Origin: a virus
IMG/VR virus record: IMGVR_UViG_3300009161_006153
Coordinates: 1-64,000 of that record
Strand: one strand, 5' to 3'
Length of the DNA: 64,000 nt
Shown here: positions 1-60,142 of the stretch, piece by piece
Layout of the letters: each line of letters starts with the position of its first letter
How positions within the stretch are numbered: the stretch's first letter is position 1
Notes under the pieces: model-generated
The model's input: only the letters and a program-made list of their open reading frames with translations
Database searches by the model: none
Told to the model about the DNA's origin: nothing
Position numbers and translations under genes: made by a program

Positions 1-792
1 ATTATAAATCTATGCAATTCTTGTAATCCTGATGTTGTCCATGTCCAATATGATGAGCATTTCATGGTTGGTGATTATTTCAATTGCGATAATGTTGTAA
101 TGACAACATATTTTGCTTATGCAGACCAAACGTATAAGCACGATGATTATTATAGAAGGATATTTGAGGGTATGCTATCCCTAAAAAAAGCTAGAATGTT
201 TGTGATATCACCTTCGATAAGAGACAGATATCTTGAAAGAGGTTTTGATAAAAATAGAATAGAAGTTGTTCCAAGTGGAGTAAGAGATGATCTTTTTTTG
301 TTTAAAGAGGAATGCGAATATCCCGATAGATCTATTTATTTAGCTAAAATAGACTATAGAAAAAGACAACACTTATTCCACAATATAGAAGATTTATATT
401 TTGCTGGAAATATAGCTGACGAAAGGTATAATAAAAACAACTATCTCGGTGAATGGAGTAAGGATTATCTCTATAAAAACTTAACGAGTTATGCAAATTT
501 AGTTCTTTTGAGCGATGGAGAGGCTCATCCATTAGTTTGTATGGAAGCTATGTCGGCTGGATTGGGATTAGTAATATCAGAATTTGCTACAGCTAATTTA
601 AATCTATCTTTACCTTTTATAGACGTGATTCCAGAATCGAGAATGAATGATATAGAGTATATTTCTGAGATAATAAAAAAGAATAGAGAAAAATCAATCC
701 CGTTAAGAAAAGAGATAAGGGATTATGTAATATCAAATTTTAGCTGGGAAAGTATAATAAAAAATCAATATTTACCTAAACTAATTAAATAA
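1..792 (+). CDS. GT4-family (GT-B) glycosyltransferase, 5'-truncated by window edge
   Basis: Frame is open from base 1 (IINLCNSCNPDVVHVQYDEHF then M64). Motifs VISP, VVPSGV, RKRQ, SDGEAHPLVCMEAMSAG (E-x7-E) and FSWE. Confidence 0.8.
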   Translation: MINLCNSCNPDVVHVQYDEHFMVGDYFNCDNVVMTTYFAYADQTYKHDDYYRRIFEGMLSLKKARMFVISPSIRDRYLERGFDKNRIEVVPSGVRDDLFLFKEECEYPDRSIYLAKIDYRKRQHLFHNIEDLYFAGNIADERYNKNNYLGEWSKDYLYKNLTSYANLVLLSDGEAHPLVCMEAMSAGLGLVISEFATANLNLSLPFIDVIPESRMNDIEYISEIIKKNREKSIPLRKEIRDYVISNFSWESIIKNQYLPKLIK

Positions 793-793
793 T

Positions 794-1603
794 ATGGACT
801 TTGGAGTTTTTTACACATGTTATACTGAAAAAAAAGCAGTAGACTATTCTTTAGAAGTTTTATATGGAATATACCCGGAGGTTCCAGTTTATCTTATCTC
901 AGATGGCGGAGATGATTATTCAGACTTAGAAAAAAAATATTCAGGTCTTGGATTTAATATAAAGACATATATCGAGGAGGATTCTAGAGGTCTTATACCC
1001 ACATTTGGACATAGGGAAGATTTCCACACAGAAGAGATTCAAAAGGCGGTACTATCCTCTGTTATGACATTTATGGAAAGGGTAAAAAGAGCGATAGATT
1101 ATAATAAGAAAGAATTTCTTCTTGTAATGGAGCCAGATGTTTTGGTCAGAGGGAAAATAACTAATTCAAATAAACATAAATTATTGGGATCTAGAGTTAA
1201 TTCGGGGATGACTGATGAAATAAGGGATATAGTTAGAAATTACCCTGGATCTATTGATGTTAATACCTGGGGAATTACTCCCGCAATATTTGAATGCTCG
1301 TCATTTCTAAAGGTTTATGATATTATCAAGGATGATAATCTTTTACTTAAAAAATTATGCTACTCCGATAGAAGGTTTGCAAATTATGATTTTATGTTTG
1401 CAGTATTGTTTGCACTCATAGGGGTACACGAATCGATTAACCCTGAAATAGTCGAGTGCTTTAGAAATCCACATTGGGAGAATAGCTGGCATCCTTTAGT
1501 ACATCAATACAGAGCTAAGTATCCTCTTTCTTCAGAAGGATATAACGGGACTCATATAATTAATAACAATGGAATGGGGGATCAATGGCAATGGAAAAGA
1601 TAG
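794..1603 (+). CDS. GT-A/GT2-like glycosyltransferase
   Basis: ISDGG, MEPDV (DxD-like) and C-terminal HQY; paralogous to the next ORF. Confidence 0.55.
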   Translation: MDFGVFYTCYTEKKAVDYSLEVLYGIYPEVPVYLISDGGDDYSDLEKKYSGLGFNIKTYIEEDSRGLIPTFGHREDFHTEEIQKAVLSSVMTFMERVKRAIDYNKKEFLLVMEPDVLVRGKITNSNKHKLLGSRVNSGMTDEIRDIVRNYPGSIDVNTWGITPAIFECSSFLKVYDIIKDDNLLLKKLCYSDRRFANYDFMFAVLFALIGVHESINPEIVECFRNPHWENSWHPLVHQYRAKYPLSSEGYNGTHIINNNGMGDQWQWKR

Positions 1604-2292
1604 GAGCATATTATCAGTGCTACATGAATAGAAATAGTCTGAATTTTGTTTTGGAAAATTATAGAAAAAAATATCCAGAATCAAATGTAATTCTAGTGTG
1701 TGACGGCGGATCCGATTTCACGGAGGAATCTATTAAATATAAATGTAATTACATACATGACAGTAAAATAGAAACAGAAAAAAATTTAATATTTAAAAAT
1801 ATTGATTCTGCTAAAAGATTTATTTCTAGGATATCGAATAATATACATCTTATCACGGAGGATTTTTTTATTCTATTAGAGGATGATGTTTATATAATAG
1901 AAAAAATAAATTCGCCTTTAGAAAACGATATTAATGGATGCAATAAGAACGAGTTTTTTTCTAATGAGATTTCTGAAGTAATAAGAAATAGAAACAGTAA
2001 TATAAGGGGTAAGGTTTACTATGGAGGGTTTGGCGGATGTATACTTAGAACTGTTTTTTTTAAACATATTTTAAAAAATTTAGATTTAGTTAATCTAGAT
2101 CTTAAAATATATTTTGAGAGGTCAAATCCATCCGAATGGGCATCAGATAAAATAATCACATATCTTTGTCTTATCAACGGAGGATCGATAGGACACTACA
2201 CTGGATTATGTGAAACTTGGTATCCCGATCTCGGCGAAAGATTAGAATTAAAATCAGTTGAGGTTTTACATCAATATAAAGAATATTATTAA
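1585..2292 (+). CDS. GT-A/GT2-like glycosyltransferase
   Basis: VCDGG, LLEDDV and HQY; same motif order as 794..1603. Start may be 1591. Confidence 0.55.
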   Translation: MAMEKIGAYYQCYMNRNSLNFVLENYRKKYPESNVILVCDGGSDFTEESIKYKCNYIHDSKIETEKNLIFKNIDSAKRFISRISNNIHLITEDFFILLEDDVYIIEKINSPLENDINGCNKNEFFSNEISEVIRNRNSNIRGKVYYGGFGGCILRTVFFKHILKNLDLVNLDLKIYFERSNPSEWASDKIITYLCLINGGSIGHYTGLCETWYPDLGERLELKSVEVLHQYKEYY

Positions 2293-2301
2293 AAAAAATA
2301 T

Positions 2302-3126
2302 ATGCAATTTAATCAAGTAGAATTAGAAAAGGTAAAAAAATATTGGAACGATAGACCTTGCAACATAAGGCATTCTGATAAAGAATTAGGGACGATGGAA
2401 TATTTCGAAGAAGTTGAAAGTAGAAGATATAAGGTTGAACCTCATATCCTTGAATTCGCTGACTTCCCTTCTTGGAGGGGTAAAAAAGTATTCGAGATAG
2501 GGTGTGGTATAGGGACTGATTCTATATCATTTCTTAAAAACGGAGCTGAACTAACATCTGTGGATTTATCAGATGAAAGCTTGAAGTTAACTGAAAAAAG
2601 AGTGTCAGTTTATGGATTTAATGCTGATTTAAGATACGCAAATGCTGAAAATTTATCCGAATATATCAATCCTACAAAATTCGATTTAATCTATTCGTTC
2701 GGTGTTCTCCATCATACCCCAAATCCAATAGATTCCTTTAGAGAGGTTACAAAATATATGGATAAGGATTCAGAATTTAGAGTGATGGTTTATCATAAAG
2801 GTGCGTTTAAGGTTTTTCAGATATTAGAACAATATGATTACGAATACGGAAGAGCTAACGAATTAATAGCTAAACATTCTGAGGCACAAACAGGATGTCC
2901 AGTGACTTATTCATACACTCCTAAAGAAATAACAGATCTTCTCAATGAGGTAGGTCTCGAAGTTACCGAAATAAAAATTGCCCATATTTTTCCCTATAAA
3001 ATAGAAGAATATAAGAGATATGAATACGTAAAAGAGCCTATTTGGGAAATGCCAGAATCCACATTTAACGAATTTCAGAGTAAGTATGGATGGCACTTAT
3101 TAGTTACATCAAAATTAAAAGCTTAA
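2302..3126 (+). CDS. Class I SAM-dependent methyltransferase
   Basis: FEIGCGIG, VDLS, NAE and FDLIYSFGVLHH motifs. Confidence 0.9.
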   Translation: MQFNQVELEKVKKYWNDRPCNIRHSDKELGTMEYFEEVESRRYKVEPHILEFADFPSWRGKKVFEIGCGIGTDSISFLKNGAELTSVDLSDESLKLTEKRVSVYGFNADLRYANAENLSEYINPTKFDLIYSFGVLHHTPNPIDSFREVTKYMDKDSEFRVMVYHKGAFKVFQILEQYDYEYGRANELIAKHSEAQTGCPVTYSYTPKEITDLLNEVGLEVTEIKIAHIFPYKIEEYKRYEYVKEPIWEMPESTFNEFQSKYGWHLLVTSKLKA

Positions 3127-3128
3127 AA

Positions 3129-3845
3129 ATGTCTAAAATATACATAGATTGTGGAACCCATTTAGGGGAGGGACTAAAGAAACATATAGAAGATTTAGGT
3201 ATAGATCAGAATTGGGAAATATTCACTTTCGAAGCAAATAGATACACCTATGAATTATTTCAAGAGACTATAAAAAAAGAATATCTCCCACCTAAATATC
3301 AATGGGCAAAATGGGATAATATAAAATATTACAACAAAGCTGTATGGACAGAAAACGGGGAGATAGATTTCTACTGTTCAACTACTGCTGATATATCTGA
3401 GATAAGAAAGGGTATGCCAGAATTCATGGAGATGCATGATCGAATGGTAGAAAATGGAGATTTACTTATACCTCATCAAAGAACTGACTTTCCTGTTGAT
3501 GGGTCTTCAACCATACTTCCAGAACACCTTAAAAGCACTATATCAGAGGGTGGTAATTTCATACAGAAAACATTAGATTGGTCCAATAAAACAAAGATCG
3601 AATGTTTTGATTTCTCAGAGTGGCTTTCAAAAAATGTGAGGGAATCAGATTATGTAGTATGTAAGATTGATATAGAGGGAGCAGAATTTGAAGTGCTTAA
3701 AAAATGTATCGAAGATGACACTTTGAGGCTTATAAATTCTCTAGATGTCGAATTTCATCATTTCTCAAATCATGAATATACGAAGGATTACAATTACATT
3801 ATGTCCGAGATAAACCGTCTTGGAATTAAATTTAAAATCTGGTAA
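3129..3845 (+). CDS. FkbM-family methyltransferase
   Basis: IDCGTHLG, FEAN, NKAVW, KIDIEGAE, VEFH. Start moved from 3090 to the ATG at 3129 just after the upstream stop. Confidence 0.8.
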   Translation: MSKIYIDCGTHLGEGLKKHIEDLGIDQNWEIFTFEANRYTYELFQETIKKEYLPPKYQWAKWDNIKYYNKAVWTENGEIDFYCSTTADISEIRKGMPEFMEMHDRMVENGDLLIPHQRTDFPVDGSSTILPEHLKSTISEGGNFIQKTLDWSNKTKIECFDFSEWLSKNVRESDYVVCKIDIEGAEFEVLKKCIEDDTLRLINSLDVEFHHFSNHEYTKDYNYIMSEINRLGIKFKIW

Positions 3846-3847
3846 AC

Positions 3848-4891
3848 ATGAACATACAAGAAATAAATGAAAATTTTCATTTTCCTAAATTCAATCTAGA
3901 TAAGATTGACATAAGAAACGAGCTAATTTCCGCTAAAAAAAGAATTTACGAGGTACAAAATTCAGGAAGAGGGACACAGGAATGTTTTCTTAGCTTTTAT
4001 CCTGTAGCAAAAAATATAAGATTCGTATCCTCTCATTTCTATAATTCAATTAAAAATAATAGAATTCCCATATTATCAGATACAGCTAGAAGCGGAGAGG
4101 ATTCTTTCTGGATGAACATGACATCAAGATCTTGGTACCCGTGGCTTTGGATTAGATATTTTAAAGATATAGATACCGGAGAAGGAAATAGAAAATCCTG
4201 GGAAAGATTATTCAGACCTATAGAGGATCCATGTATCAAAGAAGTAACAGGGTATAATGATGTTAATCCAGGATCTTTTTTCCTTTATATTGCATGCCTT
4301 TCCCATGTATTTAGATTTAATCAAATCTTCAAAAACCTTATTTTTGAAAAATACAAATCAGAATTTCCCGAAGGACCTGTTTGTGGATTGCAGATAAGAA
4401 GAGGTGAGATAGTACCAAAAGACGGCGATATAAATAAATCCTGGAAAATAAGGGAGTTATTTACCCTTGATGACTATATGGTCGGGGCAAAAGAAATCTG
4501 CGATAAATTAGGAACTAAAACAATCTTCGTTTCGAGCGATTCAAACGAGACGTTAGAGTATTTGAAAGAAAACTACACAGATTACAATTTCATAGTAAAT
4601 AAATATGATAGAAGTTTATTTGTAAGATTCCAGGGGGATCCTAGCAAGGTTAATCTTGAAAGAGATCTTCAACTAAATCCTAGTCTAATAGAGCATTACA
4701 CGGAAACATGTTTAATAGATCTTTATATGTTATCGCAATGTCAAGGCTTCGTTGGCGGTATGAGACATTCAGAATATGGAGTTTGTGGATGGTTCTTACA
4801 AATGGCAGAACAAGAGCACATAACCCCCTATTATAACTTAGAAGGAAATTTTGAACTTGATGGATTTCCTGTAGGTATGTTATTAAAATAA
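3848..4891 (+). CDS. Fucosyltransferase-like (GT23/GT11/O-FucT superfamily)
   Basis: Motif I GLQIRRGE (cf. VHVRRxD), motif II IFVSSD, motif III DLYMLSQCQGFVGG..S. Confidence 0.65.
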   Translation: MNIQEINENFHFPKFNLDKIDIRNELISAKKRIYEVQNSGRGTQECFLSFYPVAKNIRFVSSHFYNSIKNNRIPILSDTARSGEDSFWMNMTSRSWYPWLWIRYFKDIDTGEGNRKSWERLFRPIEDPCIKEVTGYNDVNPGSFFLYIACLSHVFRFNQIFKNLIFEKYKSEFPEGPVCGLQIRRGEIVPKDGDINKSWKIRELFTLDDYMVGAKEICDKLGTKTIFVSSDSNETLEYLKENYTDYNFIVNKYDRSLFVRFQGDPSKVNLERDLQLNPSLIEHYTETCLIDLYMLSQCQGFVGGMRHSEYGVCGWFLQMAEQEHITPYYNLEGNFELDGFPVGMLLK

Positions 4892-4895
4892 AAAT

Positions 4896-5627
4896 ATGAG
4901 AGTAGCTTTATGCCTTTACGGTCAACCCAGAAATTTTACACAAAACTGGAACTTTATCCAGAATAATATAATCTCTCCAAATAATGCGGACGTATTTTTT
5001 CATACATGGTATGATGAAAATAATCTAGGGTTTAATAAAATGACCCCAGGACATGAATCTAGATTAGCTGAATCTGGACTTATGTCAATGCTTCCTCAGA
5101 GAACTAATGCTAGAGAATTTATTATAGAAAAACAAATTCCATTCTATAGGAAAGAAGTTTATTGCAGTGATGAAAATTTTCATGCATGCTGGCCATGGGC
5201 GAATATTTATGATAGGGACTCGTTCTTGAAAGATAGAGTTTTTTCTCATTATAGCATGTGGTACAGCATTAATAGATCTTTACTTTTAAAGGAATTATAT
5301 TCACAAAAGAATGGATTTATTTATGACTGTGTTATGATATTAAGATTTGACGTATCCCCAAAAAATATAGTAAATGCGGAATCTTTTGATTTGAATAAGA
5401 TAGTAAGCGGATATCAACCTTTACCTAGGGGGGAGGTTAACGACTGGTTTATTATTTCTAATAATAGTAACTCCAATATAATCTCTAGCGTTTTTTACGC
5501 TATAGATTACCACAGGGACAATATAATAAAAGAAGGTGGCATATGGACAAATGAAGCTTATTTAAGAGATCAATTGAAAATCTATAATTTATCAGTAGAT
5601 TATAAAGATCTAAGTGTAACTTTTTAA
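4896..5627 (+). CDS. Putative glycosyltransferase-like protein (A/CxxGQPR family)
   Basis: MRVALCLYGQPR, FFHTW, LRFD, NDWF; paralogue at 7646. Confidence 0.45.
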   Translation: MRVALCLYGQPRNFTQNWNFIQNNIISPNNADVFFHTWYDENNLGFNKMTPGHESRLAESGLMSMLPQRTNAREFIIEKQIPFYRKEVYCSDENFHACWPWANIYDRDSFLKDRVFSHYSMWYSINRSLLLKELYSQKNGFIYDCVMILRFDVSPKNIVNAESFDLNKIVSGYQPLPRGEVNDWFIISNNSNSNIISSVFYAIDYHRDNIIKEGGIWTNEAYLRDQLKIYNLSVDYKDLSVTF

Positions 5628-5643
5628 TCAAAAACGGTATAAT
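5616..5643 (+). promoter_or_regulatory. Class-II (middle-type) promoter variant GTAAC-N17-TATAAT
   Basis: Matches the recurring motif with a 17-nt spacer, 17 nt before ATG 5661. Confidence 0.4.
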
Positions 5644-5660
5644 AAAATAAAATAATAATA

Positions 5661-6914
5661 ATGAAAATAGGATTTATTGGTTTAGGAAAACTTGGTCTTC
5701 CTTGCGCTTTGGCCATAGATTCAAAGGGACATAGTGTATATGGGTATGATCTAAACTCTGATGTTAAAAGAATTTTAGAGGAAAAAAAATTACCTTACCG
5801 GGAGGAAGGTGCTGATGATTTATTACAAACACATAATATAAAATGGGGATCTATAAAAGATGTTGTAGAAAATTCAGATATAATCTTCGTCCCTATTCAA
5901 ACGCCTCATTTACCGAAATATGAGGGAGATACGAGAATACCCTCCGAAAGAGCTGATTTTGATTACGAATGGTTAAAAAGTGGTATTAAAAATTTATCGG
6001 AAGAAATAGGAAAGCAGGAAAAGGAAAAAATAGTTATCATTATTTCAACGGTTCTACCAGGAACAATTAGAAGGGATATTAAACCACTTCTTAATGATAA
6101 AGTAAAATTATGCTATAATCCATTTTTTATTGCAATGGGGACTACGATAAAGGATTTTACATCCCCTGAATTTGTTTTATTCGGGGTAGATAGCGATGAG
6201 GCTTATCATAAAGCTAAAGAATTCTATTCCACCCTACATAATAAACCGGTATACAAGTGTACTATAGAAGAATCCGAAATGATTAAGGTTACTTACAATA
6301 CTTACATAACTATGAAAGTTTGTCTGGCCAATACTGTTATGGAGCTTTCGCACAAGTTAGAAAACATTAATTGTGATAATGTGATGAAAGGTCTATTCTT
6401 AGCTAACGAAAGATTGATTAGTCCTAAATATTTACTAGGTGGAATGGGGGATGGCGGTGGATGCCATCCTAGGGATAATATAGCTTTATCTTGGTTATCC
6501 CAGAAAGTTGATTTGAGTTTTGATTGGTATGATAATCTGATGAAATGTAGAGAAGATCAAACAGAATGGCTGTCGAATTTAATACTGGAAAGTAAAAAAG
6601 AAACAAACTTACCTATAATTATCCTAGGTAAGACATTCAAGAAAGAAACAAACTTAGTTACAGGTAGTCCTTCTATATTGCTGAGAAACATATTAAAAGA
6701 GAAGGGTCAAGAGGTAGACATGTTTGATCCGTGGATAGACCAATCCAAATCTCCACTCTCTGAGAGAGCTATATTTTTTATAGGTACCAATCATGATATT
6801 TTTACGGAGTACCAATTTCCAAAGGGGTCTATAGTAATAGATCCATGGAGATTCATAAAAGAACAAGAGGGAGTTAAATTGATAAGAGTCGGGGATTCCA
6901 CAATAAAAAAATAA
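5661..6914 (+). CDS. UDP-glucose/GDP-mannose 6-dehydrogenase family
   Basis: GLGKLG Rossmann motif, STVLPGT, YNPFFI, EMIK..N, GGGCHPRD catalytic Cys, GKTFK, DPW. Confidence 0.9.
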   Translation: MKIGFIGLGKLGLPCALAIDSKGHSVYGYDLNSDVKRILEEKKLPYREEGADDLLQTHNIKWGSIKDVVENSDIIFVPIQTPHLPKYEGDTRIPSERADFDYEWLKSGIKNLSEEIGKQEKEKIVIIISTVLPGTIRRDIKPLLNDKVKLCYNPFFIAMGTTIKDFTSPEFVLFGVDSDEAYHKAKEFYSTLHNKPVYKCTIEESEMIKVTYNTYITMKVCLANTVMELSHKLENINCDNVMKGLFLANERLISPKYLLGGMGDGGGCHPRDNIALSWLSQKVDLSFDWYDNLMKCREDQTEWLSNLILESKKETNLPIIILGKTFKKETNLVTGSPSILLRNILKEKGQEVDMFDPWIDQSKSPLSERAIFFIGTNHDIFTEYQFPKGSIVIDPWRFIKEQEGVKLIRVGDSTIKK

Positions 6915-6928
6915 TTAAATAGCTAAAT

Positions 6929-7645
6929 ATGAATAATTACGTTGAAAATTTTTCTAAAAACAAGTTATCAGAATTACATTATGCAATAATGAAAGTATGG
7001 GATAGTGAATATGAAATTTTAATTAAAGAAATTTTCGAGTCTGAGAAAATTAAAAGCTTTTTGGATCTTGGAGCTAATACTGGATGTGTCATAGAATATC
7101 TTCATGATTTTTTTGATGATGATGTTACTATTATAGGATTCGAGCCGGCGGAAGAAAATTTTAATTTTTTAAAAGAAGTCGTTGCAAAAATAAACAGGAA
7201 CAATAGATCAAAACTATACAAAAAAGCTGTTTTTTATGGTTCTAAAAAACTTAGAGCCTTCGGAGTAGGAGACAGTAGTACTGCAGGTCTTTTTTTAGAG
7301 GGGACACTATCTATAATTAATCCAAATGATCATAGAAAACCAGTACCAACAGAGTATGTTTTTGATTGTACAACTTTAGAGGATGAATTATTTGATGTCG
7401 ATTCTATAGATCTTTGTAAAATAGATGTTGAGGGGAGCGAGTATAATATAATAGAAAATAGTTCATTTTTAAAAGAAAAAGTAAAAAATATTCTATTAGA
7501 ATATCACTGGAAAAACGAAAAAGAAATTATGGATTGGCTTACATTGTATCTTCCTTCGCATAAAATTTTTAAATTAGGATATGATAAAAATGACAGTACG
7601 AATGGAAAGGAGTGTTCAATGATCTGGTTAAAAAAAATATTATAA
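6929..7645 (+). CDS. FkbM-family methyltransferase
   Basis: LDLGANTG, FEP, KIDVEGSE, LEYH. Confidence 0.85.
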   Translation: MNNYVENFSKNKLSELHYAIMKVWDSEYEILIKEIFESEKIKSFLDLGANTGCVIEYLHDFFDDDVTIIGFEPAEENFNFLKEVVAKINRNNRSKLYKKAVFYGSKKLRAFGVGDSSTAGLFLEGTLSIINPNDHRKPVPTEYVFDCTTLEDELFDVDSIDLCKIDVEGSEYNIIENSSFLKEKVKNILLEYHWKNEKEIMDWLTLYLPSHKIFKLGYDKNDSTNGKECSMIWLKKIL

Positions 7646-8521
7646 ATGAAAATAGGTATCTGTATTTCGGGGCAACCTAGAATATCCGATGATGTTTACA
7701 ATCATAACAGGAATTTTTTTGTCTCACCAGAAACAAACATCTACATGCATCTGTGGTGGGATAACAGCCACAGGGGTAAGGTAATTCGTTATCATTCTTC
7801 CGAAAGATTTCAAGACGAAGATCTCGGGAAAAAAGCTTTAGATCTATATTCACCTAAAAAATTTTTACTTGAGGATTTTAAAAAATTTGACTTAACTTTT
7901 ATAAAATCTTTTAGCAAGGATATGTGGACTGATCTTCCTAAAAAATTTATCAAAATATTTACCCCCTGGGCAATATATTCATATATGTGTCAAGCTTATT
8001 CTGTTTGCGAATCAATTAAACTAGCAAAAGAAGATAATACATGCTCTTTTCTACTAAGAACTAGATTTGATGTTATTCTCACCAAGGATATAAAAAGCAT
8101 AATTTATACTTTAAATCCAGATGATGATAAGATCTATTTTCAATCTTCTATGGAGGGTGGACATAAATATAGTGGAGAACCTCCTAACAATCCCTGCGAT
8201 TGGTTTTTTTGTGGATCCCCGATCGCTGTTTCAAAGTTCAGTGATTATTGGTTTAAATCATTTCCTCAATTATATACTAACGGAATAATAGAAGCCAGAG
8301 ATAACTTGAAGCGTACTGCGGAACTTGCCGGATTACAAATTATCCTAGTTGATTTTGGAGCTATTGTTAATCGTCAGTTACATCAGGAAAAAAATTTCGT
8401 CCATTGGCAAAAGTATTTAGATGATTTTGATGAACAAACAGGAGAAATTATATCTAATAAAGAAGATTGGCCACACTGGGTTGAATATGTTGATTTTAAA
8501 CATGTAAAACATTTTGATTGA
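7646..8521 (+). CDS. Putative glycosyltransferase-like protein (CxxGQPR family)
   Basis: MKIGICISGQPR, HLW, TRFD, CDWF; paralogue of 4896..5627. Confidence 0.45.
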   Translation: MKIGICISGQPRISDDVYNHNRNFFVSPETNIYMHLWWDNSHRGKVIRYHSSERFQDEDLGKKALDLYSPKKFLLEDFKKFDLTFIKSFSKDMWTDLPKKFIKIFTPWAIYSYMCQAYSVCESIKLAKEDNTCSFLLRTRFDVILTKDIKSIIYTLNPDDDKIYFQSSMEGGHKYSGEPPNNPCDWFFCGSPIAVSKFSDYWFKSFPQLYTNGIIEARDNLKRTAELAGLQIILVDFGAIVNRQLHQEKNFVHWQKYLDDFDEQTGEIISNKEDWPHWVEYVDFKHVKHFD

Positions 8522-9375: not shown

Positions 9376-9377
9376 GA

Positions 9378-10607
9378 ATGAATAAAATAAAAGAATTGTT
9401 TAGTCTAGGTGACATTTACGTTTCAGATTTCATAAAGGATGATGAATCCCCAAGAGGTGATAGGGTAGATCTAAAAATGATGCTAGAAGAATCAACTGGG
9501 GCAGTTAGATTAGAAAAATGTGCTCCGTTAGATTCCATGTACGGAAAATATTGGTATCGATCTGGAATCAATCAAACAATGACTAAAGAGCTTTCCGGAA
9601 TAGTAACAAATATATTAGATCTCGTTAAGCTTAACGAGAATGACGTATGGGTAGATATAGCATGTAATGATGGAACACTATTAAGTTATCTTCCAAAAAA
9701 GATTATTAGAATAGGAATAGATCCTGTTGACGATTCATTTAAAAAAGAATCCGAAAAACACGCAGATCTAATTATTCAGGACTATTTCACTTACGAGGAA
9801 TTTGCTAAGTCAAGATTTGGAAATTCCAAAGCTAAGGTTGTTACCTCTATTGCGATGTTTTATGACCTGGAAAATCCGGATAAATTTATAGATGACGTGA
9901 ATAAAATTCTAGATGATGATGGTCTATGGGTACTTCAACTTTCATACACCCCTCTGATGATAAAACAGATGGCATTTGATAATATATGTCACGAGCATAT
10001 TTATTATTATTCTCTATTTAACATGAAAAATCTACTAGAGAGGAGAGGATTTAAAATAGTCGATTGTCAGCTTAATGATATTAACGGGGGATCTTTTAGA
10101 ATCTACGTTATGAAGGAGAATGGTAATGCCAGTAAGTTTTCAACTCAACCAAATAGAGATGTTTGTGAATTTAGGGTAAATTCTATACTTGAATACGAAA
10201 GAACATTAAATCTCGATTCGGTTGAAACATGGACTAAGTTCTACGAGGACATAAAAGAGCTAAGAGAAAAAACTGTTAGTTTCATAAAGAGAGAAAAAGA
10301 GAAGGGTAAAAAGATATGGGGATATGGTGCTTCAACAAAAGGTAACACCCTGCTGCAATACTTTAACTTAGATAATACACTGATAGACGGAATAGCAGAG
10401 AGAAGTTTTTATAAATGGGGTCTTAAAACAGTTGGAACAAATATTCCTATTTACTCTGAAGATGATATGAGGAAAGAAAATCCAGATTATCTTTTAGTTC
10501 TTCCGTGGCACTTTATTAATGAATTTAAAGAAAGAGAATCAGAATTTCTCAAGAGAGGCGGTAAATTTATAGTTCCATGTCCTAAGTTTGAAATTATAGG
10601 TATCTAA
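9378..10607 (+). CDS. NDP-hexose C-methyltransferase
   Basis: YWYRSG, DIACNDG, IDP, FDNICHEHIYYY, NGGS, GYGASTKGNT, LPWHF. Confidence 0.85.
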   Translation: MNKIKELFSLGDIYVSDFIKDDESPRGDRVDLKMMLEESTGAVRLEKCAPLDSMYGKYWYRSGINQTMTKELSGIVTNILDLVKLNENDVWVDIACNDGTLLSYLPKKIIRIGIDPVDDSFKKESEKHADLIIQDYFTYEEFAKSRFGNSKAKVVTSIAMFYDLENPDKFIDDVNKILDDDGLWVLQLSYTPLMIKQMAFDNICHEHIYYYSLFNMKNLLERRGFKIVDCQLNDINGGSFRIYVMKENGNASKFSTQPNRDVCEFRVNSILEYERTLNLDSVETWTKFYEDIKELREKTVSFIKREKEKGKKIWGYGASTKGNTLLQYFNLDNTLIDGIAERSFYKWGLKTVGTNIPIYSEDDMRKENPDYLLVLPWHFINEFKERESEFLKRGGKFIVPCPKFEIIGI

Positions 10608-11392
10608 TGAATATAGTAATAGGTAACACCTCACAGCAATCGAATTATTATCCGGATGACTATATTAGGATATCTTCCAGAAATATTGACTTTGATTATA
10701 TCTCTAGTGAAAGATTCGAATCCGCTTTTTTAACTTTTGCAGAGCAAAGGATATACGAAGAAAATATAGATTACATAGGTCCTAATTTTAGATACACTCT
10801 GGAGGTAATAGAGAAGCTTCTTGATAAAACTGACAAGGTAGTTATCTTTACTAGCTGTGAGCTTTGGTCAAATACCTCGGGGGTTATAACAAATCACACC
10901 AACCCTGATTTTAATATCTCCAATCAATATGCTCTATCTAAATTATTGCTTTTTAATGAAATTAAAAGATTGAGAAATTTAGACAGCAGGTATAATAAGG
11001 TTGTTATTGTTCATCCGTTTTATTTTAATTCTGTATACAGGAGTAAGTACTTTTTATTCGGAAAAATATTTGACTCCATAGTGAATAAGAAAAAAATCGA
11101 GGTAGGAAATCTCAATTTCTACAGAGATATGGTGCACACTAAATTTCTCGTAAAAAAATCCATAGAACTCGATAAAGATTCAATGCTTGGATCTGGTAAA
11201 CTTTTTAATGTTAGAGATTTTGTTATAGATCTATATGATAGTTTTGGAATGAACTATGCTGAGTATGTAAAAGAAAATCCTAATTTAATACCCAACGATA
11301 AATTAATTAGAGCTGATGTTAACTGGGATTATTCTTACCAAAATTTATTGGAAGATACTATAGAAGATTTAAAAAATAAGATAAATGGTTAA
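10607..11392 (+). CDS. Divergent NAD-dependent epimerase/reductase (SDR)
   Basis: YALSK (YxxxK), TS catalytic region and RDMVH; the Rossmann motif is degenerate. Confidence 0.6.
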   Translation: MNIVIGNTSQQSNYYPDDYIRISSRNIDFDYISSERFESAFLTFAEQRIYEENIDYIGPNFRYTLEVIEKLLDKTDKVVIFTSCELWSNTSGVITNHTNPDFNISNQYALSKLLLFNEIKRLRNLDSRYNKVVIVHPFYFNSVYRSKYFLFGKIFDSIVNKKKIEVGNLNFYRDMVHTKFLVKKSIELDKDSMLGSGKLFNVRDFVIDLYDSFGMNYAEYVKENPNLIPNDKLIRADVNWDYSYQNLLEDTIEDLKNKING

Positions 11393-12131
11393 AGATATAG
11401 TTAAATGGATCAGTGATTATTCAAAGAATAATAATTTAAGACCTCTCGTGGTAGGTATTTCTGGAGGTATAGACTCAGCGTTAGTCTCAACATTATGTGC
11501 TATGACTGGGATCGATACTTTAGTTGTGTCTTTACCTATATACCAAAAGGACGATCAATTATTAAGAGCAAGAAATCACGCTAGATGGCTTTCCAAAAAA
11601 TATGATAATGTTGAATTTATAGAAAAGGATTTATCTGGATTATTTGAAAATTTTAAATTTATATTTTCAGAAAACGAGATGAATGAATTATCTCTAGCCA
11701 ATTCAAGATCCAGATTAAGAATGATTACCTTATATCAGATGGCAGGATCTAAAGGGGGAATGGTTATCGGAACGGGCAATAAGATAGAGGATTTCGGGGT
11801 AGGGTTTTTTACTAAATACGGGGATGGGGGAGTAGATATTTCACCTATAGGTGATTTAACTAAAACACAGGTTAGAAACCTGTCGTCGGAATTGGGTATA
11901 ATAGAGGAAATAATATTAGCAGATCCCACTGATGGGCTGTGGGAGGAAGATAGAACCGACGAGCAACAGTTAGGAGCTACATACGAAGAACTTGAATGGG
12001 CTATGGAATTTTCAGGGAATCCTATAAATCTTAATAAAAGGCAGAGGGATGTTTATGAAATATATAGTAAATTCAATAGAATTAACAAGCATAAAATGAT
12101 CGGGATACCTGTATTTAAAATTATACAATAA
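11385..12131 (+). CDS. nadE: NH3-dependent NAD+ synthetase
   Basis: SGGIDS PP-loop, NSRSRLRM, GTGNK.E, FFTKYGDGG.DI.PI.DL.K, PTDGL, TDE..LG, HK. Confidence 0.92.
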   Translation: MVKDIVKWISDYSKNNNLRPLVVGISGGIDSALVSTLCAMTGIDTLVVSLPIYQKDDQLLRARNHARWLSKKYDNVEFIEKDLSGLFENFKFIFSENEMNELSLANSRSRLRMITLYQMAGSKGGMVIGTGNKIEDFGVGFFTKYGDGGVDISPIGDLTKTQVRNLSSELGIIEEIILADPTDGLWEEDRTDEQQLGATYEELEWAMEFSGNPINLNKRQRDVYEIYSKFNRINKHKMIGIPVFKIIQ

Positions 12132-12132
12132 C

Positions 12133-12945
12133 ATGAAAATAGGGATAATCACAATAGCTACTGGGAGATACAATCAATACGTTCCCGAATTATTAGAATC
12201 TTGCGAATCTTTCTTCCTCCCTGACCACAAAAAAACTTACTTCGTATTTACAGATGGAGACATCGAGTCAAGATCTAATGTAGTAAAAATACATCAGGAT
12301 AAATTAGGATGGCCGTTTGATTCAATGCTAAGATTTCACATGTTTTTAGAAATAAAAGAGGAGCTTTTAAAAATGGACTATATCTTCTTTATGAACGCAA
12401 ATAATCAGGTAGTCAGCACAGTGGATGATTCTATACTTCCTGTAGATTCAGAGTGCGGAATTGTAGCAACAATACATCCGGGCTTTTTCAATAGAGATAA
12501 AATTTCATATTCCTATGAGAGAAGACCGGAATCTTCCCTGTGTGTTAATTTCGGGTCAGAAAATAATTATTATCAGGGATGTTTTAATGGGGGAAGATCT
12601 AAATCTTTTATAGAAATGTCAGAGTTACTAAAATCAAAAATAGATACAGATTTATCAAATAAAATAATACCCATCTGGCATGATGAATCTGCACTAAACT
12701 GGTATCTTGTAGATAAAGATCCATTGGTTTTAAATCCTAACTATGCATATCCAGAACATTTAACCAAAGATCAGATTATAGATAATTTAGCAGAAAGAGG
12801 CATAACTATAGATAATGAGATGAGTTCAGAGATTATTAGTATTACTTCGGATGATCCTCATTCTTTTGTTAGCCAATTTGGTACTGTGAAGATAATGCAA
12901 AGAAACAAAAATAAAGACGGAGGTAAACCCTATTTAAGATCATAG
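12133..12945 (+). CDS. GT6-family alpha-1,3-Gal/GalNAc transferase
   Basis: ATGRY, FTD, WP..SMLRF, MNAN, HPGF, YYQGCFNGG, WHDESALN, KNK. Confidence 0.88.
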   Translation: MKIGIITIATGRYNQYVPELLESCESFFLPDHKKTYFVFTDGDIESRSNVVKIHQDKLGWPFDSMLRFHMFLEIKEELLKMDYIFFMNANNQVVSTVDDSILPVDSECGIVATIHPGFFNRDKISYSYERRPESSLCVNFGSENNYYQGCFNGGRSKSFIEMSELLKSKIDTDLSNKIIPIWHDESALNWYLVDKDPLVLNPNYAYPEHLTKDQIIDNLAERGITIDNEMSSEIISITSDDPHSFVSQFGTVKIMQRNKNKDGGKPYLRS

Positions 12946-12963
12946 TGAATAAAAATAAAAACA

Positions 12964-13800
12964 ATGAAGGATTTAACAAAAACAACATTCATAATTCCAA
13001 TAAAAGTAGAGCATTTCGATAGGTACAGAAATGCTAAGACGGTTCTCAGTTTTCTTAATCACCATTTCAAAACTAATGTATTTATTTACGAATCATCAGA
13101 TTCGGGTATTAAATTAGATTTTCTGGATGAGCTTAAATCCCTTAATATCAAGCATTGGCTGGTTGAACCAGAAGAGATGTTCCACAGAACTAAATATCTC
13201 AACATAATGCTAGATGAAGTAGAAACACCGGTGGTTGTTAATTATGATATTGATGTTATACTAGATCCTGACTTATATCTAGAATGCCAATCTGATATAA
13301 TTAATGGCGACTCAGATGTTGTTTATCCATACCATTACGGATATGATTTTCATGGACAGAAAATGGTTTTGGCAAATATAGACTTAGAAGCCTTCAGGGA
13401 GTCAGGATTTAAAACAGATTATATAACGGAAAGGCCAAATGTTTTTAATAACTTCTATTCTGAATATGGTCATTGTATATTTTTTAACACCGATGTTTAT
13501 AAAAAATACGGAGGGGAGAATGAATCTTTTATCAGTTATGGCCCGGAAGATAAAGAAAGAGGGGAGAGGTTTTTAAAGCTTGATAAAAAGGTTTTTTGGA
13601 AAAAATTCAGATCTGTGTATCACTTTGAACATTTTAGAGGTAATGATAGCTCTCCTGGAAATAATTACTATACAAATAACTGTAAAGTGTACGAGTCAAT
13701 ATCTTCTTTAAATAGAGAGGGGCTTTTGGTGTATTACTCTACCCAAGAGTATTTAAAAAAATATAAAACGATAGGTAATGAAAATATTAATAACGGGTGA
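12964..13800 (+). CDS. GT7/GT2-like galactosyltransferase
   Basis: NYDID (DxD), GGENESFISYGPED (cf. GWGGED), YHFEH. Confidence 0.7.
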   Translation: MKDLTKTTFIIPIKVEHFDRYRNAKTVLSFLNHHFKTNVFIYESSDSGIKLDFLDELKSLNIKHWLVEPEEMFHRTKYLNIMLDEVETPVVVNYDIDVILDPDLYLECQSDIINGDSDVVYPYHYGYDFHGQKMVLANIDLEAFRESGFKTDYITERPNVFNNFYSEYGHCIFFNTDVYKKYGGENESFISYGPEDKERGERFLKLDKKVFWKKFRSVYHFEHFRGNDSSPGNNYYTNNCKVYESISSLNREGLLVYYSTQEYLKKYKTIGNENINNG

Positions 13801-14593
13801 TAAAGGATTTATAGGGGGTAACTTATCCAAAAGATTTATAGATTTAGATGATACTGTATATCAGATTGACATAGATGATTTCTACTCCAACAATGATCAA
13901 TGGACTAATGAGTTAGTATCCACATTAGATGACATTTGTCCCGATGTCATTTTTCATGTAGGAGCGTGTTCAGATACCTTGGAGCAAGACGTTAACCACA
14001 TGATGGAACTAAATTATGAATCAACAAAGATTATAACGGACTGGTCGAAATCTAATTTTAAAAAATTAATATACTCATCCTCCGCAGCTAACTATGGCAG
14101 TGGTAATTATCCGTCAAATTTATATGGATGGAGTAAATATGCGGCTGAGGGTTATGTAATATCTAATGGAGGATTAGCACTAAGATATTTTAATGTTTAT
14201 GGACCGGGTGAATCACATAAAGGTAAAATGAGCTCTGTTGCTTTTCAGGCATATCTAAAAAAACAGAAAGGGGATATCGTTAAACTCTTTCCTGGTGAGC
14301 CTAAAAGAGACTTTGTGTATATCGAGGATGTTATTTCAGCTAACATATTTGCTTTAGAAAATTATGAAGTTTTAAAATACAATTGGTACGACGTTGGATC
14401 TGAATCTGCTAGAACATTTGAGGATGTTTTAGTTAATATGGGGATTTTAAATTGGACTTATTATTCAGAATCAGATATACCTAAAGGATACCAATTTTAC
14501 ACAAAAAGCTCTAAATGGATGCCAGGTTGGAGTCCGAAATATAATATAGAAAAAGGGCTAAAAGAATATATCAAAGTACTAAGCAATGAGTAA
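13778..14593 (+). CDS. hldD: ADP-L-glycero-D-manno-heptose 6-epimerase-like
   Basis: GDKGFIG, FHVGACSDT, SSSAA.YG, NLYGWSK, LRYFNVYGP.E.HKG.MSSV, RDFVY, YQ.YT. Confidence 0.78.
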   Translation: MKILITGDKGFIGGNLSKRFIDLDDTVYQIDIDDFYSNNDQWTNELVSTLDDICPDVIFHVGACSDTLEQDVNHMMELNYESTKIITDWSKSNFKKLIYSSSAANYGSGNYPSNLYGWSKYAAEGYVISNGGLALRYFNVYGPGESHKGKMSSVAFQAYLKKQKGDIVKLFPGEPKRDFVYIEDVISANIFALENYEVLKYNWYDVGSESARTFEDVLVNMGILNWTYYSESDIPKGYQFYTKSSKWMPGWSPKYNIEKGLKEYIKVLSNE

Positions 14594-15497
14594 GATATTA
14601 GTAACAGGGGGAAGCGGATTGGTAGGTAGTCAATTCAAGGGTAGCCAATTTGAAAGGATCTCAACTAAAAACGGGGATTTGAGGGATAGAAAATTTGTAT
14701 CACGATTAATGCAAAATTCTAATTATGAAGGGGTAATTCACTGCGCAGGTAAGGTTGGAGGGGTATTAAGTAATTCTCAAAAACCTGCAGAGTTCTACCA
14801 TGATAACATTATGATCAATACAAATGTTATTGATCAGTCGATGAAAAATGGAATAAAGAAACTTGTGTTTTTTTCTTCTACCTGTGTGTTCCCAGATAAA
14901 GTTGAATATCCACTAAGTCCAGATAAAATACAGCTAGGACCACCACACCCTACTAATTATGCCTATGCATATGCTAAAAGAATGGGACAGGTTCAAATAC
15001 AAGCATATAAACAACAATACGGGGTTGATTATTTCACGGTAATCCCGTGTAACATATACGGACCTGGAGATTTTTATAATCTGAATGACGGCCACGTGAT
15101 TCCGTCTCTGATTCATAAAATGTATCTTGCGCATCAAAATAACAGTGACTTTGAAGTTTGGGGTAGTGGAAATCCTTTGAGGGAATTCATATTCTCTGAG
15201 GATGTTGCTACTATCACAATGAAACTATATGAAGATTATAAAGGGGAGGACCCTGTAATAATATCAACATCAACCGAAATATCCATTAAGGATATAGTTT
15301 ACACCATGTCTAAAATATTTGGATTTAAGGGGAGAATAGTTTTCGATTCAAGTAAGCCTGATGGACAGTTAAGAAAACCAAGTGATAACTCAGTACTTAA
15401 GTCGATGTATCCAGAATATAAGTTCACGGCATTTGAAGAGGGACTTGAAAAGTCTATCGACTGGTTTATTAAAAATTACCCAAAAATTAGGATATAA
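14586..15497 (+). CDS. fcl: GDP-L-fucose synthase
   Basis: GGSGLVG, AGKVGG, SSTCVFP, YAYAK, PCNIYGP, HVIP, WGSG.P.REF, KPDG. Confidence 0.9.
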   Translation: MSKILVTGGSGLVGSQFKGSQFERISTKNGDLRDRKFVSRLMQNSNYEGVIHCAGKVGGVLSNSQKPAEFYHDNIMINTNVIDQSMKNGIKKLVFFSSTCVFPDKVEYPLSPDKIQLGPPHPTNYAYAYAKRMGQVQIQAYKQQYGVDYFTVIPCNIYGPGDFYNLNDGHVIPSLIHKMYLAHQNNSDFEVWGSGNPLREFIFSEDVATITMKLYEDYKGEDPVIISTSTEISIKDIVYTMSKIFGFKGRIVFDSSKPDGQLRKPSDNSVLKSMYPEYKFTAFEEGLEKSIDWFIKNYPKIRI

Positions 15498-16075
15498 TGG
15501 AAAATAATCAAATTTTTAAAAGAGAATATAGCGAAATCTTAGTTCTAGGTGATGGGGTAACAGAGGTTATCAATCCAAAAAATTTTTTATGGTTCTCAGA
15601 TACTATAATAGAAACTGGGACATGTTCGGGAGCAGGAATAGATAGATTTTTAGAAGCTGGATATGGTGACATAAGGAGCGTAGAACTAGACCGGAATTGG
15701 TTTGAAATTTCATCTAACAGATTTAGATCTAATCAAATGGTTAAGATATTGTTTGGAGATTCTAGAGAAAAAATGAAAGATATGCTTCCAGATAAACCTG
15801 CAGTTGTTCTTCTAGATGCACATCCGGCTGGACCTGGAACTGCGGGGCATGAAGATTTCATCAAACATCAGAGTTCTGGTACTTTGGATCAGTGCTCATT
15901 TCTACAAGAAAAAATAATATACGAGGAGATCTCTATTGTATCTAAAAGCGATCATAAGCATTTAATAATAGTGGATGATCAACATTCTACAGATCCTAAT
16001 ATAATTAATCTTTTACCCGGATATCAGTTTGAATTGGTTAATAAAAAATACTTAGTTTGCATCCCTAAAAATTAA
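15497..16075 (+). CDS. Methyltransferase-fold protein
   Basis: IETGT, SVE, GDS, LDAH, IVDD. Confidence 0.6.
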   Translation: MENNQIFKREYSEILVLGDGVTEVINPKNFLWFSDTIIETGTCSGAGIDRFLEAGYGDIRSVELDRNWFEISSNRFRSNQMVKILFGDSREKMKDMLPDKPAVVLLDAHPAGPGTAGHEDFIKHQSSGTLDQCSFLQEKIIYEEISIVSKSDHKHLIIVDDQHSTDPNIINLLPGYQFELVNKKYLVCIPKN

Positions 16076-16079
16076 AAAA

Positions 16080-17063
16080 ATGAATAAAAGAGCTCTTATT
16101 ACTGGGATTAATGGTCAATCTGGAAGTTATTTAGCTGAGTTCCTCCTTAAAAAAGGATATGATGTATACGGAACAATAAAGAGAAACTCGGTTTCTGAAA
16201 ATCAAACATCAAGGCTAGACGAGGTTTATGATCAGATAAAAGGTAATTTAATATACGCAGATCTTTTGGATGTACCATCGCTTATACATGCTTTAAAGAT
16301 ATCAGATCCACACGAGATCTACAATTTAGCAGCTCAGTCGCATGTTAGAATCTCTTTTGATCAGCCGGTTTACACCGCACAATCAACAGGTATAGGTGCC
16401 CTTAATTTAATAGAGGCGGTGAGAATCCATAATCCTGAAATCAAAATATATCAGGCATCATCATCAGAGATGTTTGGAAATTCTATAGACCCTGATGGGT
16501 ATCAAAGGGAGACAACCCCGATGAATCCTGTCTCCCCGTATGGGTGTGCTAAGGTCTTTGCTTATAACATATCTAGGAATTATAGAAATTCATACAATAT
16601 GTTTATTAGTAACGGGATTCTATTTAACCACGAATCTCCGCGTAGGGGCGTTAATTTTGTCACTAACAAAGTAGTAAAGGGAGCGGTAGAGATTAAGATG
16701 GGATTATCGGATAAGCTCGTTTTAGGCAATTTAAAAGCGTCTAGAGACTGGGGACACGCCAGAGACTACGTGAAAGCAATGTGGATGATACTTCAACAGG
16801 AAAATCCAGGCGATTTTGTTTGCTCCACCGGGATAAGCCACACTGTAGGGGATTTAGTTGATTATGTTTTTGATAGATTACAATTAGATCAGAGCAAGCA
16901 CGTAATTACAGATGAAAAATATCTTAGGCCTGAAGAATTGGAGCATTTAAAAGGGGACTCAAGTTATTTAAGAAAAGTTACAGGATGGGAACCAGAGTAC
17001 ACTTTTGAATCTATGTTAGATGAGATGATTGATTATTGGGTCTTGTATTACTCCACTAAGTAG
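16080..17063 (+). CDS. gmd: GDP-mannose 4,6-dehydratase
   Basis: GINGQSGSYL, NLAAQSHV, QASSSEMFG, SPYGCAK, FNHESPRRG, RDWGHA. Confidence 0.95.
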   Translation: MNKRALITGINGQSGSYLAEFLLKKGYDVYGTIKRNSVSENQTSRLDEVYDQIKGNLIYADLLDVPSLIHALKISDPHEIYNLAAQSHVRISFDQPVYTAQSTGIGALNLIEAVRIHNPEIKIYQASSSEMFGNSIDPDGYQRETTPMNPVSPYGCAKVFAYNISRNYRNSYNMFISNGILFNHESPRRGVNFVTNKVVKGAVEIKMGLSDKLVLGNLKASRDWGHARDYVKAMWMILQQENPGDFVCSTGISHTVGDLVDYVFDRLQLDQSKHVITDEKYLRPEELEHLKGDSSYLRKVTGWEPEYTFESMLDEMIDYWVLYYSTK

Positions 17064-17082: not shown

Positions 17083-17110
17083 AAAAAGTCCATTTATATG
17101 GACTTTTTTT
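17083..17110 (+). terminator. Intrinsic terminator ending the glycan locus
   Basis: AAAAAGTCCAT-ttat-ATGGACTTTTTTT hairpin with T tract. Confidence 0.8.
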
Positions 17111-17113
17111 GTG

Positions 17114-17121
17114 GATATATA
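17114..17121 (+). promoter_or_regulatory. Late-type promoter GATATATA
   Basis: Immediately after the terminator, 18 nt before ATG 17140; motif recurs before structural genes. Confidence 0.65.
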
Positions 17122-17139
17122 CAAGAAAAAGTTTTTACC

Positions 17140-20923: not shown

Positions 20924-20952
20924 GAAACTAAAGTCATGTTTACAGCTAAAAG
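20924..20952 (+). promoter_or_regulatory. Class-II promoter GAAAC-N18-TAAAAG
   Basis: Between the terminator and uvsX. Confidence 0.55.
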
Positions 20953-34532: not shown

Positions 34533-34536
34533 GAAA

Positions 34537-34565
34537 GAAACCAAATAAAGTATTCATAGTATAAT
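34537..34565 (+). promoter_or_regulatory. Class-II promoter GAAAC-N18-TATAAT
   Basis: Ends 5 nt before ATG 34571. Confidence 0.65.
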
Positions 34566-34570
34566 ACATT

Positions 34571-35405: not shown

Positions 35406-35406
35406 A

Positions 35407-35634: not shown

Positions 35635-35642
35635 AAAAAAAC

Positions 35643-60138: not shown

Positions 60139-60142
60139 AAAA

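Follow-up and report, generated by a model that had tools for sequence, protein, structure and literature searches.

A probable glycan assembly island in T4-like freshwater phages: enzyme content, conserved slot and candidate acceptors

To our knowledge, large phages give 3-10% of their genome to islands of glycan genes, and the glycosylated target has never been demonstrated. Islands of this kind are already known from cyanophage genomes and from reviews since the description of P-SSM2 in 2005 (PMC1079782). In P-SSM2 (genes 257-271) and Synechococcus phage Bellamy (genes 200-228), both T4-like, co-oriented genes form one contiguous block that contains several short-chain dehydrogenase/reductase (SDR) epimerases, GT2, GT4 and GT6 glycosyltransferases and methyltransferases, with no annotated exporter. 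A block of the same character occupies positions 1-17063 of the stretch of DNA analysed here (the window), which comprises the first 64 kb (64,000 nucleotides) of the linear, 74,949-base IMG/VR virus record IMGVR_UViG_3300009161_006153. We regard its identity as a glycan assembly island as very probable. Our preferred interpretation is that it encodes a self-contained cytoplasmic assembly line in which the chain is built on a virion acceptor made by the phage itself; to this interpretation as a whole we assign a probability of roughly 0.4.

The window fits the glycan ('LPS', lipopolysaccharide) islands of T4-like phages in its T4-like genome, its mixed enzyme block and its fixed slot with variable content. 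As in Bellamy, where genes 225-227 encode a NadE-like protein, a methyltransferase and a nucleotide-sugar 6-dehydrogenase (UGDH) side by side, it has both a NadE-like and a UGDH gene. Its GT6 enzyme has the motif Asn-x-Asn, whereas that of P-SSM2 has Asp-x-Asp (PMC3516806), a type found in the same slot of some relatives of the window phage. Additions relative to the cyanophage clusters are the FUT8-fold fucosyltransferase, the C-methyltransferase and, at a separate site, a sulfation cassette. The phage also belongs to another lineage and to fresh water: its UvsX shares no more than 40% identity with any entry of the phage collection, the best matches being uncultured huge phages.

The O-antigen locus of E. 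coli O86 contains gmd, fcl, the GT11 gene wbnK (WbnK), the GT6 gene wbnI (WbnI), wzx and wzy. The window shares with it the enzyme logic for a blood-group-like cap and a GDP-fucose supply of its own, and a GT11 gene is present in four complete relatives. Unlike the O86 locus, the island is part of a phage and not of a chromosome, and neither the island nor the four complete relatives have wzx, wzy or a priming transferase. Mycobacteriophage transferases reportedly add glycans to subunits of the capsid and tail tube within the cytoplasm, a mechanism like the one we propose for the island; that work, by Freeman and colleagues in 2023, is said to concern a few genes in siphoviruses of Actinobacteria and a glycan shown by mass spectrometry, compared with 20 or more genes read here from sequence alone. 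In giant viruses, soluble, early-expressed transferases and methyltransferases act on capsid or fibril glycans, as in the capsid N-glycans of PBCV-1 and the fibrils of mimivirus (PMC9614988). Virus-encoded GMD, GMER and UGDH, soluble transferases expressed before the late phase and finishing O-methyltransferases are common to these viruses (PMC9614988) and, as predicted from sequence, to the island, which differs in realm and host and is known from its genes only.

Enzymes of the island and the proposed pathway

Twenty plus-strand open reading frames (ORFs), abutting or overlapping, fill positions 1-17063. A sequence-only reading of the window, made without database searches, had described a co-oriented block of at least 17 kb with about 21 genes; the block was confirmed, and the count is 20. 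The roughly nine glycosyltransferase-like ORFs of that reading are indeed nine, five assigned by profile and four by fold, paralogy or lead, and profile searches also recovered its 6-dehydrogenase, C-methyltransferase, HldD-like, Gmd and Fcl enzymes. Four of its five methyltransferases were supported by profile, and the fifth, a 192-aa protein (15497-16075), resembles a methyltransferase only by eye, through a glycine-rich motif; it has no similarity to the small methyltransferases of the relative G001. Two genes come in addition to those named earlier, encoding a NadE-like enzyme and a degenerate SDR protein (see below).

The visible part of the island opens with a GT4 glycosyltransferase gene truncated at its 5' side by the contig end (1-792; phrog_33732, E 5.8e-85; the PF13439 match, E 5.6e-6, is under the cut-off), whose product is 45-53% identical to annotated cyanophage glycosyltransferases. 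Next comes a GT-A-fold glycosyltransferase-like protein from a mostly viral family (794-1603), the Atlas model of which has TM scores of 0.62-0.66 to GT15 and GT8 clusters and the nearest Atlas clusters of which are 100% viral, followed by its paralogue (1585-2292; BLASTP 4e-14). The product of 3848-4891 is a GT23-like fucosyltransferase of the FUT8/NodZ fold (PF19745, 28.8 bits with a cut-off of 27.6). Its AF2 model (pLDDT 91.4) had FUT8 as the top Foldseek match (E 9e-10), then AtFUT1, NodZ and POFUT, and contigs with 79-84% identical copies exist. Two other GT-A-fold transferases are paralogous to each other (20% identity in the alignment): 4896-5627 (phrog_13607, 1.5e-18) and 7646-8521, for which the AF2 model (pLDDT 91.3) gave top Foldseek matches that were all GT-A (E 1e-6). 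A probable nucleotide-sugar transferase (8518-9375) was assigned from an Atlas GT34 match (score 0.95) that serves as a lead only. The series is completed by a GT6 alpha-1,3-Gal/GalNAc transferase (12133-12945; PF03414, 2.3e-29) and a clade-conserved GT2/GT7C-like transferase (12964-13800; phrog_15655, 3.5e-57). PDB sequence searches with 794-1603, 3848-4891 and 15497-16075 returned nothing useful.

The methyltransferases supported by profile are a class I S-adenosylmethionine (SAM) methyltransferase (2302-3126; PF13847, 4.8e-14), two FkbM-type enzymes (3090-3845, PF05050, 3.7e-7; 6929-7645, PF05050, 3.5e-11) and an NDP-hexose C-methyltransferase (9378-10607; PF08484, 1.8e-45). The nucleotide-sugar 6-dehydrogenase of the UGDH family (5661-6914; TIGR03026, 190.9 bits with a cut-off of 189.8) carries three UDPG_MGDP_dh domains. 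The gap before its gene (5628-5660) is the longest in the island and the only one above 25 nt, and contains GGTATAAT, a possible host-type -10 element. The degenerate Gmd/SDR-like protein (10607-11392) has weak PF16363 and PF01370 matches below cut-off, and the NadE-like protein (11385-12131) matches the NAD synthase family of ATP-dependent amidating enzymes (TIGR00552, 165 bits with a cut-off of 63.65). At the 3' end lie an HldD-like SDR epimerase (13778-14593; best match TIGR02197, 169 bits), an Fcl-like GDP-fucose synthase (14586-15497; best match NF047922, 253 bits) and Gmd (16080-17063; TIGR01472, 379 bits; PF16363, 375 bits), the TIGR02197, NF047922 and TIGR01472 scores being under the equivalog cut-offs.

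From these enzymes the following pathway can be proposed. Gmd and Fcl would convert host GDP-mannose into GDP-fucose, and the C-methyltransferase together with SDR enzymes would branch the 4-keto intermediate off to a branched 6-deoxy sugar. The 6-dehydrogenase would turn a UDP-hexose into a uronic acid. The NadE-like enzyme may amidate this product; alternatively, it may just supply NAD. NadE-like genes are also found inside the glycan islands of unrelated phages, beside or near UGDH. The transferases would then assemble a hetero-oligosaccharide with a clade-conserved, blood-group-like cap, made up of galactose (added by a GT7 or the GT2-like enzyme), alpha-1,2-fucose (by GT11 or the FUT8-like enzyme) and alpha-1,3-Gal/GalNAc (by GT6). 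The FkbM and SAM enzymes would O-methylate the chain, and a cassette at 32-36 kb would probably sulfate it. Assembly of the chain would take place in the cytoplasm, straight on an acceptor made by the phage, and not on undecaprenyl phosphate for export; by analogy with chlorovirus and mimivirus glycosylation, proteins exposed on the virion, such as fibres and decoration or sheath domains, would be the likeliest acceptors. Candidates are a PKD protein at 27047-27940, the fibres at 29040-31274 and 31333-31899, the sheath at 41223-44567 and the major capsid protein.

The sequence-only reading had also named DNA as a possible acceptor. Some or all of the transferases would in that case add sugars to a hydroxymethylated phage base as a defence against restriction. 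Phage clusters with this function decorate 5-hydroxymethylcytosine with mono- to trisaccharides, in which uronic acids and heptose occur; their defining feature is a neighbouring pair of cytosine methyltransferase and TET-type oxygenase (Pyle et al., bioRxiv 10.1101/2023.12.21.572611). The island resembles them in bringing transferases and sugar-nucleotide enzymes together, but no C5-cytosine methyltransferase, TET or hydroxymethylase was found in it, and the weak TAGT match in 1585-2292 (PF20691) reaches 16.7 bits where 27.5 is the cut-off. Moreover, nine transferases with fucose, C- and O-methylation and sulfation go far beyond any described DNA glycan, and GT6, GT11 and FUT8-type enzymes use sugar acceptors. 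A TET/JBP search of the relatives gave no match, but its positive control was silent too. The four complete relatives (G001-G004) each have a strong thymidylate-synthase gene with an open frame of 407-434 aa, possibly with an insertion. Far from the island, each also has another ORF of some 260 aa with very weak similarity to ThyA (e.g. G003:C1:161635-161820), which could be a hydroxymethylase. On balance, we consider DNA hypermodification highly improbable.

A shared slot in twelve relatives

Genes of the window, almost all on the plus strand, identify a T4-like phage: UvsX, a DnaB/gp41-type helicase, SbcD/SbcC, a gp15-like protein, terminase, portal and a sheath of 1,114 residues, together with fibre-like proteins that contain Mtd_N and collagen segments. 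Two full-length portal genes stand in tandem at 58543-61792. The completeness of the record was estimated by CheckV at 24%, and megablast searches with the island and with the structural block recovered no match among 50,697 phage records. Twelve relatives were found in IMG/VR, with UvsX 79-87% identical in 11 of them and 69% in one. Four are 100% complete according to CheckV (348-434 kb), three of these with terminal repeats. They are larger than the moraphages, a freshwater group that reaches 307 kb and is marked by ClpA, a sigma factor and four core groups of glycosyltransferases (PMC12619734).

In 11 of the 12 relatives the island lies in the same slot before uvsX, with a syntenic 3' core and a differing 5' part. 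Conservation can be recognised for GT6, the GT2-like gene, Fcl and Gmd; Gmd is 75-82% identical in relatives, and the GT2/GT7C-like protein is 54-60% identical in 10 of them. As the window begins at base 1 of its record, the 5' side was read from the relatives, five of which have enough flanking DNA to define the island start. There, a gene for a ClpB-like ATPase is followed by one or two minus-strand genes, including a GT7 of the beta-galactosyltransferase type, and then by a plus-strand run of 9.5-16.4 kb that opens with GT11 (the second gene in one relative). The island of the window is longer than that of any of these five phages, and the middle of the island varies from phage to phage. 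GT11 was found in exactly one copy in each of the four complete genomes, always inside the island, and in none of 14 control bacteria. It is absent from the visible 75 kb of the window's record, which misses the 5' end of the island and does contain the FUT8-fold enzyme.

DNA of the window recurs at full identity in contigs from four other freshwater metagenome runs, and one 3.2-kb contig (run X4) reaches 1.2 kb upstream of window base 1. Window 490-695 is repeated in this extension with 47 of 206 letters changed. Part of the first gene is thus present a second time in diverged form, and a second GT4-like gene should accordingly lie upstream of base 1; it may have broken the assembly. Joints with sides of 20-26 letters in the matching contigs were set aside as paralogue or foreign matches.

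GT6, which occurs in 72 records of the phage collection, is represented in the slot by two types. The window and G001 have the Asn-x-Asn, Bacteroides-like type, and three other phages have the Asp-x-Asp, P-SSM2-like type, with 33-36% identity between the two (window 12133-12945 versus L026:10644-11363, L004:4199-4825 and L012:3356-3979). The window enzyme matches the solved structure of BoGT6a (4ayj) with E 1.8e-48 over residues 1-209, NAN aligned to NAN, and has the catalytic-domain motifs of BoGT6a and the ABO transferases in the metal-independent Asn-x-Asn form. BoGT6a, from Bacteroides ovatus, was shown to transfer GalNAc to 2'-fucosyllactose (PMC3516806). The bacterial homologues nearest to the phage GT6 are up to 46-48% identical; many are from Bacteroidota, a weak hint at the host phylum.

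At its 3' end the island is bounded by an intrinsic terminator (17083-17115, plus strand), the hairpin of which (17083-17108, -14.7 kcal/mol, z -3.7) begins 20 bases past the Gmd stop and is followed by a T run; none of 200 shuffles folded as well. The order of Gmd stop, hairpin, T run, GATATATA[CG] and next gene was found in all five relatives compared, with unrelated stem sequences, which argues for a real transcription boundary and agrees with the terminator of the sequence-only reading. The island is thus predicted to be one transcription unit closed at 17083. That virion genes lie next to the island, as that reading had it, is not borne out by the genes downstream: two K/E-rich proteins (17141-18405 and 18415-20214) come after the terminator, and then uvsX, the helicase and SbcCD. 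The K/E-rich genes keep their position in all relatives at only 24-35% identity, and the first has a weak endolysin-family match near its C-terminus.

The promoter-like motif GATATATAC (17114-17122, plus strand) comes after the hairpin and T run, the next gene starting 26 bases on. ATATATA[CG] occurs eight times in the window, and seven occurrences (17114, 20358, 27026, 41184, 47048, 52035/52038 and 54314, mostly GATATATAC or AAATATATAC) are intergenic, 20-59 nt ahead of gene starts, that of the tail sheath gene included; one heads the gene for an 809-residue protein (54374-56803). From this placement we take the motif to act as a late-type promoter of the window phage, and it looks like the late promoter of the clade; the two K/E-rich genes are then probably expressed late. 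It is unlike the late motif of T4, TATAAATA. For a lone ATATATAG within coding sequence at 12060 chance suffices, as it does for GAAAC-N18 matches at 1771 and 51383.

A different motif, G[GA]AAC-N18-TAAAAT, lies 9-23 nt ahead of the first gene of the island in four of the five relatives (G001, G002, G004 and G005). In the window, G[GA]AAC-N18-TAwAA sites at 20924, 31965, 34537 and 50106 include those preceding uvsX and two genes of the sulfation cassette (32031-35918, plus strand; sulfotransferase PF13469, 3.8e-19; FkbM, 1.3e-21), which lies in the tail-fibre block directly behind two fibre genes. Since one promoter class is common to the island starts of the relatives, uvsX and the cassette, the island and the cassette probably form part of one middle-type regulon and not of the late class, and the cassette probably belongs to the pathway of the island.

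Absence of export genes and the host surface as target

All 20 island products are predicted to be soluble: a crude Kyte-Doolittle hydropathy scan (19 residues, mean at least 1.6; not a trained predictor) gave no more than one hydrophobic segment for any of them. The sequence-only reading had recognised no flippase, polymerase, priming transferase or exporter in the visible block, and this held: there is no multi-span protein, and the profile searches came back empty. Neither Wzx (PF01943) nor the ABC-2 permease (PF01061) was found in the contig and the four complete relatives, while the controls matched in 13 and 14 of 14 bacteria, respectively; Wzy/WaaL (PF04932) and the priming transferases (PF02397 and PF00953) were likewise absent from the contig and the four complete relatives. 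Depending on the family, the positive controls matched in 10-14 of the 14 bacteria. Export genes further upstream, which on the earlier view would have pointed to host serotype conversion, were seen neither in the full islands of five relatives, which also lack multi-span proteins, nor in the four complete genomes. In bacterial 17-kb windows centred on GT6, 25 of 39 contain an ORF with at least five hydrophobic segments, compared with none of four phage islands. These predictions describe a clade without an export route of its own, and at the level of the clade the absence of export genes is solid. The only plus-strand ORF of the contig with more than one hydrophobic segment (52378-53112, 244 aa, four segments) lies far from the island and has no match in NCBIfam.

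The virion target of the sequence-only reading does not follow from this absence and is left with indirect leanings, because host priming and export could serve; the missing export genes do not discriminate strictly between a virion and a host-surface acceptor. At the inner face of the membrane, soluble phage enzymes could extend or replace a lipid-linked glycan of the host (an O-antigen unit, a capsule or the protein O-glycan of Bacteroidota), and the priming transferase, flippase and ligase of the host would export the product. The surface of the infected cell would be altered, so that superinfection would be blocked, or the progeny would be kept from re-adsorbing to infected cells and debris. 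Such remodelling is the published reading of the 24 'LPS genes' of P-SSM2 (PMC1079782), of jumbo cyanophages (PMC7824862) and of pelagimyophages (PMC7029224), but it has no experimental backing for any such lytic phage cluster. The enzyme families are those of O-antigen loci, and many of the nearest bacterial GT6 homologues are from Bacteroidota, with BoGT6a as the best solved match, but the host Wzx, Wzy and ligase would have to accept a new repeat unit.

Other observations divide in the same way. The variable middle of the island is the pattern expected from diversifying selection on a surface antigen, and middle-class promoters suit an early need. Set against this are the lack of membrane proteins in the island and of the five tested families in the four complete genomes, as well as the recurrence of part of the gene set in giant-virus-labelled contigs (see below). 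In addition, O-antigen GT6 enzymes have been described with a hydrophobic C-terminal membrane-association domain (PMC3516806), whereas the alignment of the phage GT6 proteins shows C-termini with a short polar or basic tail and no hydrophobic tail. GtrA/GtrB/GtrC-like membrane proteins would have shown as multi-span proteins, of which the island has none. Known phage seroconversion systems rely on such membrane proteins (Gtr, Wzy-type). Remodelling of the host surface is, in our view, quite possible, if short of an even chance.

Giant-virus-labelled contigs and the choice of acceptor

Single-protein scans of IMG/VR with 794-1603 and 3848-4891 gave no match, but an alignment-based scan with the FUT8-like protein succeeded and returned two sets of contigs. 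In the phage-like set, the genes lie on one strand in nearly the order of the window (8518-type, FUT8-like, 4896-type, 7646-type, UGDH, FkbM, GT4, GT6). The second set (L116-L122, which bear the GVMAG label, and also L115, L123 and L124) is labelled as giant-virus metagenome-assembled genomes and has mixed-strand genes, with up to five island families within about 10 kb and seven in all: GT4, the 794/1585 type, the SAM methyltransferase, FUT8-like, the 4896/7646 type, 8518 and UGDH. Identity between the island proteins and these homologues is 24-49%. One of the giant-virus-labelled loci encodes ankyrin-repeat and zf-MYND proteins and another GT31- and GT47-type transferases. The motif AAAATTGA, which we take to be the mimivirus early promoter, was found upstream of ORFs at five of seven sites in L117 and four of six in L119, compared with none of 11 in the phage-like contigs. 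As far as we have seen, the clustering of island gene families in such contigs is apparently a new observation.

In the fucosyltransferase tree, the phage-like and giant-virus sets are split with full support into two deep clades, and the sharing is therefore likely to be old and not the result of recent traffic. It looks like a glycan module common to jumbo phages and giant viruses. Since a bacterial lipid-linked pathway is out of reach for viruses of eukaryotes, a shared module favours a cytoplasmic target. A more far-reaching version, which we hold to be doubtful, is that an old, portable jumbo-phage/giant-virus module, comprising GT4, two virus-typical GT-A families, the FUT8-fold enzyme, UGDH and a methyltransferase, coats virions with a methylated and fucosylated (in the window phage also sulfated) glycan by a cytoplasmic route that is free of a lipid carrier. 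If this were true, the question posed since 2005 by the 'LPS genes' of large phages would have its answer: they would be genes for a virion coat.

Three features thus lean, indirectly, towards a cytoplasmic viral acceptor: the predicted lack of a membrane-binding tail in GT6, the probable co-regulation of the sulfation cassette in the tail-fibre block, and the module apparently shared with giant-virus-labelled contigs. On these grounds a virion target is plausible and somewhat favoured.

Several points weigh against it. The target side is inferred throughout. In the O-antigen, capsule and Bacteroidota O-glycan pathways the cytoplasmic transferases are likewise soluble, and GT4, GT2, GT11, GT6 and gmd/fcl are families of bacterial O-antigen loci, e.g. 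that of E. coli O86. The island promoter predicted in the relatives is of the uvsX class and not of the late class of the sheath gene, so that the island would not be co-expressed with the virion genes. Lake water offers no obvious antibody-type selection in favour of a 'glycan shield'. As for the giant-virus link, the identity of these contigs is based on the IMG/VR label and indirect features, no capsid gene was seen in the loci covered, and with two deep fucosyltransferase clades acceptor specificity may have changed.

The transferases might also act on another cytoplasmic target, such as host proteins (adhesins, pilins, flagellins), or make a free oligosaccharide or decoy; in a mixed variant, the conserved cap genes and the variable genes would serve different targets. 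Such a division would suit an island that consists of a conserved core and a variable part, the acceptor is not fixed by the sequence, and the FUT8-/POFUT-fold enzymes include protein-directed members. However, no phage cluster of such size is known to us to have this function, and the island has no carrier or acceptor gene, which makes these targets improbable.

Assembly on a virion acceptor, our preferred interpretation, and remodelling of the host surface thus concern a question that has been narrowed but not settled by the clade-wide slot with its blood-group-type cap, the genome-wide absence of export genes, the sulfation co-regulon and the giant-virus kinship. The interest of the island lies mainly in the conserved architecture of the slot, the genome-wide negative and the link to the giant-virus gene set. 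If the host envelope is the target, lytic phages would rewrite host serotypes while infecting. If the virion is the target, tailed phages that infect Gram-negative bacteria would be sugar-coated in the manner of giant viruses, with consequences for adsorption, particle stability, grazing and host range.

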